From Octopus vulgaris (lineage: Eukaryota), in contig OX597819.1 of NCBI GenBank assembly GCA_951406725.2, positions 66,340,001 through 66,404,000 of the forward strand: a stretch of DNA of 64,000 nt. The letters run 5' to 3'. Shown piece after piece: positions 1 through 63,243 of this stretch. Position numbers and translations under genes: made by a program. Numbering within the stretch: the first letter of the stretch is position 1; every line of letters begins with the position of its first letter. Below the pieces are notes generated by a model, which searched no databases, was not told the DNA's origin, and saw nothing but the letters and a program-made list of their open reading frames with translations.

Positions 1-245
1 ATTAAAAACATAATTTTTGTAGGAAACGCCAATTGTAAAGTAAAATCTTTTTATTTTATTTACAAAAGATTGCCGAAACTATGCATAGTCCAGGAAAGAT
101 AGGGTAAACGTTTTTATTTCTCTTTCCCTTTCAGAATTACAACTATTAATGGTTTGGAGTTTAACTGCTCTTTCTAGTGAGTCAGATGTCCTATTATGGT
201 CATCTCTTATGCATTTAACTGCACACTGTATTTTTCTATAAATAT
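1..245 (+). mobile_element. Penelope-like element 3' tail fragment, homologous to 7470-7630
   Basis: GAAACgccaattGTA at 23-37 resembles an HHR stem III and cleavage triplet. tagggtaaacgttttt and tttctagtgagtcagatgtcctattatgg align with cagggtaaatgtttttt and tttctagtgggtgaatggcctattatgg at ~7505-7610. Ends in TA/CA microsatellite. Confidence 0.5.
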
Positions 246-253
246 AAATATAA

Positions 254-330
<77 letters not shown>

Positions 331-392
331 GTGAAGGGAAGAAATGGAGCTGAACGAAGATTCTACATAATTCCTTTTTATTATCTTCTCAA

Positions 393-2586
393 ATGAGAAC
401 ACAGCCGCTTAGCCCTAAACAGCCTAGATTCATTGTGAAGGACCACAAACCTAATTTGTACACCAACCCAGCGTTAAGGCTCATATGCCCTTCTAGTTCT
501 GACATCGACGCTATCAGTAAGTACATTTTAGACAAATATATTCCTAGTTTAGTCAATAAGCTGAAGCTTAGCCTCTGGGCGAACTCCTCGCAGGTCGTTA
601 AGTGGTTCTCTTCTATCCCTAATAAAAACCGAACTAAGTTCATTCAGTTCGATATTGCTAGCTTCTACCCCTCAATTGACCCTAGTGTACTTAATAAGGC
701 CCTGTGGCATGCACATAATAAGGCAGGCCTCACTAGAGAAGAAATTGATATAATCCTTGTAGCCAGAAAATCTTTCATAAAGTTTGACAATAAGTTGTGG
801 GTTCGTAAAGATACCCCCAACGAGTTCGATGTGCCTATGGGTAGTTCAGATAGCGCGCAGATTGCCGATTTGGTCGGAATATATATTCTCTACGAATTAT
901 CCGACCAGTTCCCGGAAATCCGGGGCGGCCTATATCGTGACGATTGTCTGTTTTACTTGCAAAACACCACGAACAGAATCGTTCAGAAAACTAAAAAAGG
1001 TTAGCTAGGTTCTTTAATAGGATGGGCATGAGTATAGTTTTTGATAACGAACTAACGAAGGCTAATTTCTTAGATGTCACACTTAACCTCCATAGCGATT
1101 CTTACTGCCCTTACCATAAGCCTTCTACTAACTTAAAGTATGTCAGTGTCTTCTCGAATCACGCTAAAACTATAACAGACAATTTGGTTAAAAATATTTC
1201 TCAAAGATTGACCAATTTGTCTGCTAATGTCGACATTTTTAGGCAGAATGAGGAATTTTATAATGCCGCCCTGTCTAAAGCCGGTTATAGGGAGAAGGTA
1301 GTATATATAGATCCTGCCCTTCCGATGCCAGCATTCTGTCATCGGGATAGGGCCGGCTACAATAACATAAATAATTTAAGTAGTGATGATAGCCCGAGGA
1401 ATGTCGGAACAAGTACATCTAGAATAAATTTAGGTAACATAAATAATTTGCGGTCCAGGGGAGGCAATAGTAAGCCAAAACCTATTATTCAGCATAGAAA
1501 TACCCACCTTAATGTCAGAGTTGACTCCCCGACCCATTAGAAAAGCAGGAATAAATACATTTGGTTTGTAATTCCCTTTGGTAAACAAATAAGATCTAAT
1601 CTACCCCTACAGTTTCGCCAAGCCATTGCCAGTAATTTTCCCAGAAATTCCAGATATTACGCCACTGTTAACTCACACAAAGTTAGGATAGCCTTCTCAA
1701 ACACAAAATATCTCTCCCAGATAATTTCCTCCCATAACAATAAGCTGCTAAATAAGACCCTATCACTCTCGTCCGGAGACGCAGCTCCGTATAATGCTAG
1801 AATAGCGAACAGTAATAATAATAGTAATAGTGATAATAGAACCGGCACAGAGATTAGCAATCTGCATACCAGCCATGGAGTCAATAATAGGAATATGGAT
1901 AGGAGCAATGTTGACGGCACTAACGTTAGTTATAGTAATAGGGTTGAGAGCACTGTCCGAGTCACTAATGTAGAGAGTCCTAATAACACCTTTAGCAGCG
2001 GTTTAGACCACAGTAGGGCCACGGACATTAGCGATCACAGCGATCTCAGTGACAGGGAGTACACGGGTGTTGTACCATTAAATAGTATTGATAATGGGGT
2101 GTATAATGTCGAACACAGCCGCAGTTCTCACAATCATTATAGTAATAAGAACGCCGTATTAATATCGGAAGCAAATCCCAATAGAATTAGGTTCTTATCT
2201 AGTAATTCCAAGATTAAAAATGCCATTTACCAATGCAGGATTTACACTGAATCAGATGTCTACTCGTATATAGGAGCTTCATCATCAAAATTGGCCGTGA
2301 GAATATCGAACCACTTCGCAACATTTCGCGATTTTAAGAAACATCACGCGACAGGCTTAGTAAATTGATCTGGCGTTTGAAGAACGCGAATTCAGCATTT
2401 ATACTGGAATGGTCGATTTTATCGGTGTCTCTACCTTTTGATAGAGGCAAAAGAATTTGTAATCTTTGCAACTCGGAGCTTTTTCACATCCTATTCGCCC
2501 GAGGGCACCGTCTAGTTAACGGGATTCTGCAAAATTCTTTCAGATGTCCCCATTGGCGCCGACACACATTTCTTGCATGCAATTGA
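393..2586 (+). pseudogene. PLE reverse transcriptase + GIY-YIG endonuclease ORF (~730 codons, 3 lesions)
   Basis: RT motifs KDHKPNL, QFDIASFYPSI, VPMGS, LYRDDCL, NFLDVTLNL, YHKP. Thumb/linker KYIWFVIPF...IISSHNNKLL. EN motifs AIYQC...YIG...RISNH...IWRLK...CNLC...CPH. Lesions: 1-nt deletion in A6 at ~993-998, in-frame TAG at 1538-1540, 1-nt deletion at ~2357. Confidence 0.88.
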
Positions 2587-3179
2587 AACCTAAGAGAATT
2601 AACCCCTTGAAGTCCTAAGAGAGAAAAAAAATTTTTTTTTAATTTTTGGGAAAATTTTGAAAAGATATTTGAATTAATTTTGCAAGGGGACACTACTCCC
2701 CTTTTGGCGTTTGGTCCGCTACTTTTTTAGAAGCGAGATCAAGAATTATGTTCTCTTTGATTTGACAAGTTATCTCTTTACAAACTGACCACAAACGGAC
2801 ACACAGACACGACCAACAAAATCAGCAGGTCCTTTTCCCTCTACCCGCTGCTTGACAGACTCCCACACTTACACAGGCGTGCACACACATACATGTAGGC
2901 AGGGTCCCACACCTATATAAGATAGCCTTAATTCTTAAAACAATCTGAACATTAATTACAAAGAATATATTCACACCATTTGGTTTTCAGTATTTCTTCC
3001 ACTACCAGGATTGACCGCTGTCTGAACCCGATTGATTCCAACGGACATTTTCGTCGGCCTCCACCACCACCCCACAGACGTCAACGTACAGTGAGAGACA
3101 GTTTTGTGCTTTCATGGGCTCCTAAGGAGCGCTTTGTTCTACCTTGCTGCGCATTTGTTTTGGATTTTTAAATTCCTGG

Positions 3180-3264
3180 ATTTTCCTGAAGAGAATGCTG
3201 CAAATGGTCTCCTTATTCAATCCGAATTTGGAAATTTGCGGCCTTTGAAACATGTGCAGAAGAT
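3180..3264 (+). ncRNA. Type I hammerhead ribozyme (minimal stem III) in the PLE 3' UTR
   Basis: Stem I ATTTTC (3180-85)/GAAGAT (3259-64); CTGAAGA at 3186-92; stem II 3193-3205/3234-3246 (12 of 13 paired); GAAAC at 3247-51; loop ATGT; triplet GCA at 3256-58 (GTA in the homologous copy at 28274-76). Confidence 0.72.
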
Positions 3265-3469
3265 AATAAAAGGAATTATGTAGAATCTTCGTTCAGCTCC
3301 ATTTCTTCCCTTCACTAAATATATTGAACTTCAATTATCCGCGCTAAGGCACGGTCGAGACACCCCAAGGTCGTAACTTCAACCGTGTCTTTTCTGTTGT
3401 GATTTTTGCTACCCGGGATCGGTTAAATTTTGAATAATCCTTAACAAGATAATTCATTTATCCATTTCA

Positions 3470-3497
<28 letters not shown>

Positions 3498-3502
<5 letters not shown>

Positions 3503-3685
3503 GCCCAAAAGTAGGTGCTTAGTTCTTAATTATAAAAATATATGAAACCATTATTCTATGCTAATTTCGATAAATTTGTCAATCTCCCTTTTCAATTTGT
3601 AAGATAGAAATTTATATGTAATATGTGTTAAAAGAAATTTAAGATGTCTACTTGATAACTGTAAACCTACTTTTGGGCCACACTG
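3498..3685. mobile_element. Tc1/mariner-type MITE
   Basis: TIR gtgtggcccaaaagtaggt (3498-3516)/acctacttttgggccacac (3665-3683) in TA context; a partial internal homolog lies at ~40370-40465. Confidence 0.7.
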
Positions 3686-3691
3686 TATATG

Positions 3692-3752
<61 letters not shown>

Positions 3753-4690
3753 TTGTGTGTGTTTGTGTGTGTATGTGTGTGTAACCTGTGAATAGTTAGG
3801 GTTGTTAGGATTATAGATACATAAAGCTAAATACAAAATAATAACAGACAAAGACATCCAGATTGCAAAATTTGTTGAGACACGGAGTGAATAGGAAGTA
3901 TCAAGTGTTTCAGTCAGGCAAAATTTAAAACATAATCAGATATAAAATGTTAAATTTAGATTTTAAAAAATGCATTAACTAACTCAACCTTTCCGTTTCT
4001 TGAAATTTTAAATATATTTTCTTCTAAGCAGCATGAAATCAAGAGTTATTTCTGAAAAAGAGAATGAAAAACAAAATAAATGATAACATCTGTATAACAA
4101 AAAAAAAAGGAGAGAACGAGCGAAGAAGTAAGGAAAAACAGATAAACAGATATGATACTAAATTCACTATGCTCGCCGTGTACGCCATTTCTATTCCGTT
4201 GCACAAACGTTGATTTATTTGTATTGCTTGGATGGCATGTTGTCATGGAATGCAGAAAGCGTTTCCTTACTCTCACAAGAAATTACAGTTCATTGAAAAT
4301 ATATGGTCGCTGTAAAGTAAAATAAAATTATATTAAAATAAAAAAAATAATAATAAGATATTAAAAAAGGAAGTCACAGAAAATAAGAGAGAATAAGCTT
4401 CTTTACATTATGACGCGCTTGCCATTTCCAGAAATATTACTGTAGTATCAAAACCGAACTAAGGTACGGCTGTTTTAAAAGAAGAACTGAAAAAAAAAAA
4501 AAACATTTAAAATGTTAAACAAATCAAGATATTTGATATTTTTGTATTACTAATTTTCTTTACAAAAGCACCTAAACGAAACCGTTTGTTTTTGACAAAA
4601 CCGAGAAAAGCTAGATGAGCATAATGTGGATGAAGATAATGATAATGATGATGATGTTATTGATAAGATATATAAAAAAAAAAAGAATTT

Positions 4691-4904
4691 TTTCTACTCT
4701 AGGCACAAGGCCTGACATTTTTGTGGAGGTAGCTAATGAATTACATTGAAACTTATGTTCAAATGCTACTTATCTTATGAAGCCCGAAAGAAATGAAAGG
4801 CAAAGTCAACATCGGTGGAACTTGGATGCAGAACGTAAAGAGACGGAAGAAATGACGCTAAGCATTGTATCTTACGCGGTGGCGATTATGCCAGCCTGCC
4901 GCCT
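4691..4904 (-). mobile_element. tRNA-derived SINE family 1, diverged copy
   Basis: Matches the family core gaaaggcaaagtcgacctcggcggaatttgaactcagaacgta seen many times in the window. Confidence 0.7.
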
Positions 4905-4910
4905 GGAAAA

Positions 4911-5190
4911 GTGATGATGATGATGATGATGATGATGATAATAATGACGACGACGATTCTGATGATTGCCATGACGACAACGATGATGATGATGAGGAGG
5001 AGGATGACCAAAACAACGACGACGCTGATGATGATGATGACCATGGTGACGTCAACGACGATGATGATAATGATGATGAAAACGACAAGAATGAGAATGA
5101 CGACAACGACGATGATGATGATGTTAATTATGATGATGATGAGGATGATGACGACGATAACAACGAGGATGAAGAGGAAGATGACGATAA
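4911..5190. repeat. (GAT/GAC/AAC)n trinucleotide microsatellite
   Basis: Direct inspection; it explains the poly-D, poly-M and poly-S ORFs. Confidence 0.9.
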
Positions 5191-5686
5191 TTTATTTTGT
5201 TTAACAGAAGAAAATCTGATGAGGAAACATTTAAAAGACGAATTAGAAAAAAAAAACACTCTTCGCAGAGTTTTGATGAATCGTTTACGAAAAGCAGTCG
5301 GAAGGAAGGCATTGAAAAATAACTGAAACGTCTCATACCAACGGAAGATCAGTCACCTGGGGCCCATGAAGGAAAACTTTAAACCCAATATGACTCAGAC
5401 TGGCGAAAACAAATGCCTTTCTTCCGATTTTGTTCTACTGGCACGAGCATAATGAGATCAATTCCTGTGGGTCGTTTACACTATTCTCACTACCTTTGAG
5501 AAAACTTACTAAAAATCAACGTTACATCTATTTCTTTATATTTACACCTGTGCCTCTGTCTGTCTGTCTTTCTTTCTCTCTATCTCTCAATCTCTCTTTT
5601 GTACTTCATCCTCAAGTTTACTTTCAAGTGGAACATGAAGAGTTTGCTTACAGCTTTGCCTAAAAGAGAAGTGTTTGGTCAATTTA

Positions 5687-6257
5687 TTGGGGTGTCCGGA
5701 AAGTTCGTGTCGATTTATAGTAGCTTAGCTTTCGATTTATTTTAGGACATGGTTTAGACCATAAAATAGGAGTTGACTACACCTCCATTTAGAGCACAGT
5801 TTAAGCTATCTTTTCGAGGAAGAAGATTTATGTTCCTATAAACTGTGTTAATTCTGTAACCCTTTAAAATGGAAGATAAGTAAGTTCATTTTCGGCACTT
5901 GATGCTTTGGGAACCAGACAAAAATTGCTGCAGCTCGGCTGGGATGTGTTACCCCACCCTCCATATTCACCAGATGTTGCTCATTCGGATCTTCCACTTA
6001 TTCAGGTCTCTGCAGAATAGTCTTAATGGTAAAAATCTCAATTCCTTGGATGACGTAAAAAGTTACCTTGATGAATTCTTTGCCATGAAACCACCTCAGT
6101 TCTGGGAAGAGGGTATTTTCAAGTTAAAGGAAAGCAAGATGGAGACGCATAGTGCAACAAAATGCTTCATATTTGGTTGATTAAAAATGTAATGACAAGT
6201 ATTTATTGACCTTTTTCTTTCCTTTATAAATCTGCTCGAACTTTCCGGACAACCCAA
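5687..6257 (+). mobile_element. Internally deleted mariner transposon
   Basis: TIRs ttggggtgtccggaaagttcg/cgaactttccggacaacccaa with TA flanks. N-terminus MEDK*VHFRHLMLWE is fused to C-terminal LGWDVLPHPPYSPD...HLFRSLQNSLNGK...FWEEGIFKL. Confidence 0.9.
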
Positions 6258-11759: not shown

Positions 11760-12419
11760 TTTCTTTATTGCCCACAAGGGGCTAATCATAGAGGGGACAA
11801 ACAAGGACAGACAAATGGATTAAGTCGATTACTTAATTTATCGACACCGAAAGGATGAAAGGCAAAGTCGACCTCGGCGTAATTTGAGCTCAGACGTAAC
11901 GGCAGACGAAATACTGCTAAGCATTTCGCCCGGAGTGTTAACGTTTCTGCCAGCGCGCCACCTTAGTCGACCTAGGCGGAATTTGGATTTAGAACGTAAC
12001 GGCAGACGAAATACCTATTTCTTTACTACCCACAAGGAGCTAAACACAGAAGGGACAAACAAGGAGAGACAAACGGATTAAATCGATTACATTCACTCCA
12101 GTGCGTAACTTGTACTTATTTAATCTACCCAAAAAGGATGAAAGGCAAAGTCGACCTCGGCGGAATTTGAACTCAGAACGTAGCGGCAGACGAAATACCT
12201 ATTTCTGCATTACCCACAAGGGGCTAAACACAGAGAAGAACAGACAAACGGATTAAGTCGATTACATCGACCCCAGTGCGTAACTGGTACTTAATTTATC
12301 GACTCCGAAAGGATAAAAGGCAAAGTCTACCTCGGCGGAATTTGAACTCAGAACGTAACGGCAGACGAAATACGGCTATGCATTTCGCCCGGCGTGCTTA
12401 ACGTTTCTGCCAGCTCGCC
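11760..12419 (-). mobile_element. Tandem multimer of SINE family 1 (~184-bp units)
   Basis: Four repeats of the core; identical junction gacgaaatacc|tatttc at ~12015 and ~12199. Confidence 0.85.
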
Positions 12420-28056: not shown

Positions 28057-28280
28057 GTGAAATAGAAAGATGAATAATCTTGTAGTAGATTAATCAAAAG
28101 TTTAACCGATACCTTAGTAGCAAAAATCACAGCAGTAAAACAGCACGGTTGGAGGTACAACCATATGGTGTTGCAACCGTGCGTTGGTGTGGATAATTGA
28201 AATTAGAACATTATTGGTGAATTGAAGAAATGGAGCTGAACGCAGATTGAACAGAAATCGTTTTATTTCATTCTACACAT
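28053..28280 (-). mobile_element. Solo 3'-terminal fragment of a Naiad-related PLE, in (TA)n
   Basis: Reverse complement is colinear with 3252-3470: gttcagctccatttcttc, ttcaattatcc, gcacggt...aaccgtg, gtgatttttgctac, atcggttaaa. Confidence 0.85.
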
Positions 28281-62435: not shown

Positions 62436-63243
62436 TTTTCTAGTCTAGGCAGAAGGCCCGACATTTTTGATGAGGGGCCAGTCGATTAGATCGAACCCAG
62501 TAGGTAACTGGTACTTAATTTATCGACTCCAAAAGGATGAAAGGCAAAGTCGACCTCGGTCGAATTTAAACTCAGAACGTAACGGCAGACGAAAGATCGC
62601 TGAGCATTTCGCCCGGCGTTCTAATGTTTCTTTTCTACTCTAGGGAGAAGGCCCTAAATTTTGGGGGAATGGACTAGTCGATTAGATTGACCCCAGTACG
62701 CAACTGGTAATTCATTTATTGACCCCGAAAGGATGAAAGGCAAAGTCGCCCTCGGCGGAATTTGAACTCAGAACGTAAAAACAGACGAAATACCGCTAAG
62801 CATTTTGCCCGGCGTTCTGACGTTTCTCATTTCTTTATTGCCCAAAACGGGCTAAAATAGAGGGGACAAACAAGGAGAGACAAAGAGATTTAGTCGATTG
62901 CATCGATCCTAGCGCGTAACTGGTTCTTAATTTATCGACCCCAAAAGGATGAAATGCAAAGTCGACCTCGACGGAATTTGAACTCAGAATGTAACTGCAC
63001 ACGAAATACCTATTTCTTTACAACCCACATGGGGCTAAACACAGAGAGGACAAACAAGGACAGACAAACGAATTAAGTCTATTACATCGAGCCCAGTGCG
63101 TAACTGGTACTTAATTTATCGACCCCGAAATGATGAAAGGCAAAGTCGACCTCGGCGGAATTTGAACTCACAACGTAACGGCAGACGAAATACTGCTAAG
63201 CATTTCGCTCGGCGTACTAAAGTTTCTGCCAGCTCGCCGCCTT
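62436..63243 (-). mobile_element. Tandem tetramer of SINE family 1
   Basis: Four cores; full head only at the 63243 end; junctions at ~62630, ~62826 and ~63010. Confidence 0.85.

Follow-up and report, generated by a model that had tools for sequence, protein, structure and literature searches.

A Penelope-like element inversion in Octopus vulgaris: probable priming at two fixed AUAU-rich sites, with an end at a predicted hammerhead cut that is likely coincidental

Can the end of a retroelement insertion keep a record of RNA self-cleavage? The question is raised by a Penelope-like element (PLE) in a window of 64,000 nucleotides of Octopus vulgaris DNA (assembly GCA_951406725.2, contig OX597819.1, positions 66,340,001 to 66,404,000 of the forward strand; positions below are those of the window). 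Here a short inverted piece precedes the direct element, and a first-pass annotation had read its inner junction as a “fossil” of hammerhead ribozyme (HHR) self-cleavage. Comparison with the other copies in the genome suggests a different origin. The insertion is probably a 5'-truncated Hydra-clade PLE whose inversion arose when each end of the (TA)n target primed on an uncut RNA at its own fixed, AUAU-rich site, the end at the cut being a chance truncation. Its parts are listed in Table 1.

Table 1. Parts of the insertion, with window coordinates, strand and remarks.
Feature	Position	Strand	Remarks
Left (TA)n target run	292..321	.	
Inverted piece, element 3324 to 3259/3258	322..389	-	Putative second cDNA; first 6 nt common to target run, T389 common to ORF side
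Direct 5'-truncated Penelope-like element (Hydra clade by motifs)	390..3469	+	
RT part of ORF (KDHK, FDI, YRDD motifs)	390..1540	+	Frame change near 1000, stop 1538-1540
Post-RT region, Asn/Ser-rich insert, C-terminal GIY-YIG endonuclease	1541..2586	+	Frame change near 2340-2368; CCHH and CxCX5C linker absent, CxxC and CxH present
Zone of piled-up cDNA ends	3075..3113	+	G3106 likely the main capped transcription start
Type I hammerhead motif	3180..3264	+	Long stem II, 2-bp stem III, predicted cut 3258/3259
Internal ATATAT (priming site A), where inverted pieces have their fixed outer edge	3319..3324	+	
“Tail” separating both priming sites	3325..3469	+	~145 nt; ~155 to downstream ATATA in read-through copies
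Priming site B, continuous with the (TA)n target run on the right	3470..3497	.	

The geometry of the junctions is largely as first annotated. The inverted piece is the reverse complement of 3324-3258 over its full 68 nt, with one extra T within it, and 322-378 is 100% complementary to 3268-3324 over 57 nt. The fifth T of the window's inverted piece is found in 0/17 other matches sharing the same two flanking variants. In longer copies the junction reads AATT/CAAATG, so T389 could belong to the inverted piece or to the ORF side, which puts the end of the former at 3258 or 3259. This agrees with the earlier placement of the inner junction no further than 1 nt from the predicted scissile bond, and the end may lie exactly at the predicted cut (3259). 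The outer edge, too, is the internal ATATAT, which runs into (TA)n as had been stated; the (TA)n flanks hold no readable target-site duplication. Longer copies have ~560 nt between the 3470 site and 390 that are missing from the window copy, and in copies that read through past 3469 a short A/T-rich stretch, with ATATA a few bases on, leads to the ORF start ~50 nt later.

To which group of PLEs does the element belong? The RT comes first and the GIY-YIG endonuclease last (~2215-2586), and the element is therefore not Naiad, the label it had been given in error. Naiad needs an endonuclease N-terminal to the RT and is without a canonical HHR, whereas here the endonuclease is C-terminal and both HHR core and stems are conserved. 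The Hydra clade, which includes Hydra-1_Obim, is defined in PMC8557442 by a C-terminal GIY-YIG, DKT, an RW motif, the absence of CCHH, CxxC/CxH, an HHR and a (TA)n target, and the octopus element shares each of these. A single ORF with RT and C-terminal GIY-YIG is recovered from the overlapping open frames of two copies (L137, 758 aa; L094, 532 aa), the window copy being broken; DKG is changed to DKT, CCHH is absent, CxxC and CxH stand beside a conserved E and N, and HHR and (TA)n insertion are both present. Differently from the clade as set out in that text, RWL occupies the RWK/RWR column, the unit measures ~3.6 kb with Asn-rich inserts instead of <3 kb, and the CxCX5C linker is missing: it lies ahead of the endonuclease in 10/10 aligned homologues and is absent from L094 and the window copy (L137 ends before the linker position). 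Compared by eye with Hydra-1_Obim, the N-terminus and HHR are unlike those of the octopus element, which so belongs to a different family. The one homologue bearing an organism name comes from an octopod. Searches of Pfam and PDB with the ORF returned no match. Judged by motifs and by similarity by eye, the element is a Hydra-like PLE with one defining feature lost.

The claim that 3180-3264 folds as a type I HHR stands as far as the layout is concerned, and less well on energetic grounds. The family satisfies the type I core CUGANGA/GAAA/NUH with stems I-III, and in the window copy CUGAAGA lies at 3186-3192 and GAAA at 3247-3250. Over 48 aligned copies, 94.3% of cells in the structure are paired, compared to 33-51% in slid controls, and two-sided changes affect 13 cells vs 3.8 in shuffles, an excess inflated by kinship among the copies. 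However, the HHR shape is not the minimum-energy one (z -0.4 to -1.6), free folding does not return it, and for the window copy it has a folding energy of -6.4 kcal/mol vs -21.7 kcal/mol for the minimum-energy fold. An Rfam search of 1-6000 gave no HHR match. In addition, the window copy carries C3257 at the core U16.1 position. The resulting GCA is found in 1/114 distinct copies, while GUA is found in the two commonest forms (101/114) and GUC in 2 diverged copies; the C is most likely a private mutation. The cut at 3258/3259 is a self-cleavage site predicted from the motif layout. A diverged relative with a CUGAUGA/GUC hammerhead adjoins four of the loci L009-L012 and L014, five near-identical insertions lying 27-66 kb apart (G000:C20, 4.24-4.40 Mb), a cluster that is probably a segmental duplication.

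Do other copies end at the predicted cut? Among the matches listed (of 140, window included), 100 inverted pieces were mapped together with 99 direct pieces; the counts that follow exclude the window's two rows and two duplicates, and eight junction positions were set by hand from junction sequences. The inner ends of inverted pieces are scattered from 3299 to beyond 390, and 81 of the 98 other listed inverted pieces extend through the cut site. Only one of these 98, and one of the 97 listed direct pieces, ends at 3256-3260. Relative to the listed inverted pieces at risk (1/82), this is a rate of 0.25%/nt, compared to 0.44-0.61%/nt in the flanking bins; for 3257-3259 the listed pieces give 2 ends observed vs 1.6 expected (P=0.47). 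Genome-wide, the pattern for junctions at 3257-3259 has 15 matches, of which 12 are true junctions, and a control 9 nt upstream (3248-3250; same mismatch design, different anchor) has 20, with true junctions at 18 loci. Plotted against the HHR, the ends are broadly spread with no excess at the cut, and the proposal that the inner junction records self-cleavage does not survive this comparison. The ribozyme cut leaves no mark on the integration junctions of the family. One inverted piece has a chance of ~1% of ending in the 3-nt cut window and there are at least 140 such pieces; therefore some copies ending at the cut are expected, and the end of the window copy is likely a coincidence.

Could the window copy nevertheless be an exception, with a second cDNA that ran off the 5' end of an HHR-cleaved RNA in a family mostly using uncut RNA? 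We regard such a rare event as unlikely. Its appeal lies in the end at 3259/3258 combined with a conserved HHR core, and in other ends compatible with the same site: that of L099, which fits the cut within a base, several of the 12 genome-wide junctions, which could be placed at 3259, and that of a second, diverged copy in the window. These fits are mostly owed to a common TA microhomology, the direct arm of the window copy itself read through an uncut HHR, and the number of ends at the cut does not exceed background in the sample or across the genome. A small share of cleavage run-offs may exist; the agreement with the cut is to 0-1 nt both here and in L099.

Several observations concern ends near the hammerhead. 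The second copy of the terminal repeat (28058-28280, minus strand) is diverged (78% identity) and lies between microsatellite runs; microhomology with the flank leaves its 5' end somewhere between 3252 and 3259. Position 3250-3251, at the palindromic HHR stem III upstream of the cut, has many cDNA ends (L293-L312), possibly from microhomology or an RT pause. Copies that hold the whole ORF start and an upstream repeat begin at ~3118 (L137), 3206 (L141), 3144 (L147), 2931 (L149) and 3390 (L153), and none of these five begins at the HHR cut.

The ends do pile up further upstream. Of the 72 listed pieces reaching 3113, 34 end within 3075-3113, a rate of 1.69%/nt, compared to 0.43%/nt over 3114-3300 (P 1e-9) and ~0.1%/nt upstream of the pile-up. 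Within this zone, position 3106 has 27 genome matches (6 point variants and 21 junctions), and C is next on the cDNA strand in 14 of the 21 junctions (P 0.002-0.004 vs a 33% baseline). All six ends at 3106 in loci not selected for C carry it as well. At 3105, where 21 matches comprise 8 variants and 13 junctions (2 doubtful), C follows in 0/13; a control pattern at 3107 has 13 matches vs 8 with the reversed pattern, junctions and variants together. An apparent cluster at 3113 was rejected because it arose where subfamilies differ from the window sequence, and an apparent class at 3103 because it is a 1-nt deletion variant. In L1 and SVA, an extra G on the sense strand is interpreted as cap copying (PMC4859970). 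We infer that the octopus transcript begins with a cap near G3106, which lies ~150 nt upstream of the cut, and the position of the pile-up argues that the templates were uncut. In most junctions at 3106 the extra C could also be the first base of the partner piece. The case for a cap is therefore a statistical one, in which L253 and L254 may count as one event instead of two. The pile-up could also reflect RT pausing, or mark where the source loci end.

In contrast to the scattered inner ends, the outer edges are fixed. The pattern (TA)n joined to the 3324 end has 140 exact genome matches vs 0 for a control pattern, and it selects for that edge by design. An unselected test is provided by 97 loci anchored at 3470: 58 have a partner piece, and 53 of these partners end at 3321-3324 (49 at 3324, one at 3321, one at 3322 and two after an intervening piece); for the other 39 loci the flanking DNA examined holds no partner piece. 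Seen from the 3324 anchor (98 listed loci), a direct partner with its end near 3470 is present in 72. The element thus ends, on both sides, at AUAU-rich sites within its transcript, and almost without exception each end uses one of the two. These counts support the first-pass annotation in so far as it proposed a reaction like twin priming, in which the second end of the (TA)n target primed at ATATAT. Two tail-only insertions were also seen (L186, L195), with ~3319-3469 between two (TA)n runs.

How are the two arms related? Compared over 65 pairs, the two arms disagree at 15 of the 1195 sites diagnostic of subfamily (1.3%; 25.9% in random pairs), and two or more discordant sites occur in 2/65 pairs. 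Both arms therefore come from one source sequence; gene conversion could also make them alike. In L1 twin priming the second primer anneals at variable places and the arms mostly abut. Unlike this, the second site here is fixed and the arms often overlap. Among the listed loci, 28 of 72 insertions fit the prediction of classic twin priming, with a direct arm that starts downstream of 3324; in 37 of 72 it starts upstream of 3305 and overlaps the inverted arm. Such overlaps are not produced by simple twin priming of the L1 type on a single RNA.

The overlaps would also fit the use of two RNAs of the same source locus, one per half of an RT dimer, with the inversion as a head-to-head join of two target-primed (TPRT) products. 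We consider this fairly unlikely. The direct pieces are without a clear pile-up at 3324, as two RNAs would allow, and a dimer is predicted for the Poseidon protein (PMC11167929); but alone this scheme leaves unexplained the near-constant assignment of 3324 to one end and of 3470 to the other, and the rarity of mixed-subfamily arms speaks against it. It is also very improbable that the inversion was templated by DNA, through a fold-back or template switch that was primed at the palindromic ATATAT during synthesis of the second strand or during repair. The self-complementary site, the nearly identical arms and the tail-only insertions would fit, yet inverted arms are often longer upstream than their own direct arm (e.g., L059, L107 and L118) and so contain sequence absent from it, which rules out a simple fold-back and largely refutes this explanation; in addition, the ends at 3106 with an extra C include ends of inverted arms (L068, L084). 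For the overlaps we favour a single RNA that was copied two times, with strand displacement or through its pair of terminal repeats; two RNAs of one locus are a possibility.

Priming at two fixed sites of an uncut RNA would then proceed as follows. The GIY-YIG endonuclease would cut both strands of (TA)n. Of the resulting 3' ends, one would anneal at 3319-3324 and the second near 3470, on a transcript that starts near G3106, is probably capped and has not been cleaved by the HHR. Each cDNA would halt at a variable point, or run off the cap adding C. Overlapping arms would mean that a stretch served as template twice, either on a single RNA with strand displacement or on two RNAs from one locus. 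Both cDNA ends would join via 1-6 nt microhomology. For the window copy this would mean a direct cDNA of 3.08 kb from a downstream repeat and a second cDNA of 66-67 nt. A more general version can be offered tentatively, as conceivable but rather less than probable: two-site priming on one capped, uncleaved RNA would be obligate, each end of the doubly-cut (TA)n pairing with its own AUAU site; RNA-DNA pairing, and not the lost zinc-finger linker, would target the element to microsatellites; a single reaction would account for the tail as well as for the inverted repeats; and the additional base at 3106 would be the trace of a capped PLE template. The host genome is 2.8 Gb in size and rich in microsatellites, and a first survey of it gave ~3000 candidate copies.

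How does this compare with known systems? An inverted 5'-truncated copy beside the 5' end and a “tail” extending one end only are PLE features described in PMC8557442, and both are shared by the octopus family. The tail given there is 30-40 nt, compared to ~145-155 nt here, where the two ends use two sites, one each. The Poseidon element PAc of Anolis likewise has two internal start sites bounding a tail and an AT-rich target; in vitro, both strands are cut and extended, and the HHR is dispensable (PMC11167929). According to the same paper, HHR mutants insert normally, uncut RNA is the main substrate, and no RNA-seq ends lie at the HHR cut. The octopus DNA junctions would agree on an uncut template. 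In contrast, the PAc start site is placed in AC-rich sequence not homologous to the cut DNA (PMC11167929), while both octopus sites hold AUAUA(U), complementary to (TA)n. With L1, the family shares a head-to-head inversion with small junction indels and an extra G taken as cap copying (PMC4859970). A literature search, reaching few subscription papers, found nothing on HHR-defined PLE junctions, cap marks in PLE insertions, a ~150 nt tail, target-complementary start sites, the use of one site per end or (TA)n targeting without the linker. The insertion is then a known kind of Penelope inversion, with genomic evidence for an uncut, probably capped RNA template. It differs from the PLE features described so far in its ~150-nt tail, in start sites complementary to the target and used one per end, in a probable trace of the cap, and in reaching (TA)n although the linker to which such targeting has been ascribed is missing.

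The origin of PLE inverted repeats and tails, and the role of the HHR, are named as open questions in PMC8557442. This family supplies hundreds of young insertions that answer part of them, and the absence of a ribozyme mark on its junctions agrees with the one in vitro system. Two fixed, target-complementary sites and templates apparently starting upstream of the ribozyme suggest specific mutations for in vitro work. A self-cleavage fossil would have mattered more and was not borne out.

The window contains further repeats. Adjoining the 3' (TA)n of the insertion, ~3499-3682 holds a 19-nt inverted repeat around ~145 nt, which we take to resemble a small Tc1/mariner-type MITE. A long GAT-rich triplet repeat at 4862-5326, with a poly-Asp frame of 154 aa, is probably a simple repeat. 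Finally, short tandem arrays with periods of 175-196 nt, SINE-like or retrozyme-like in appearance, are found at 11965-12373, 62436-62827 and 62849-63193.
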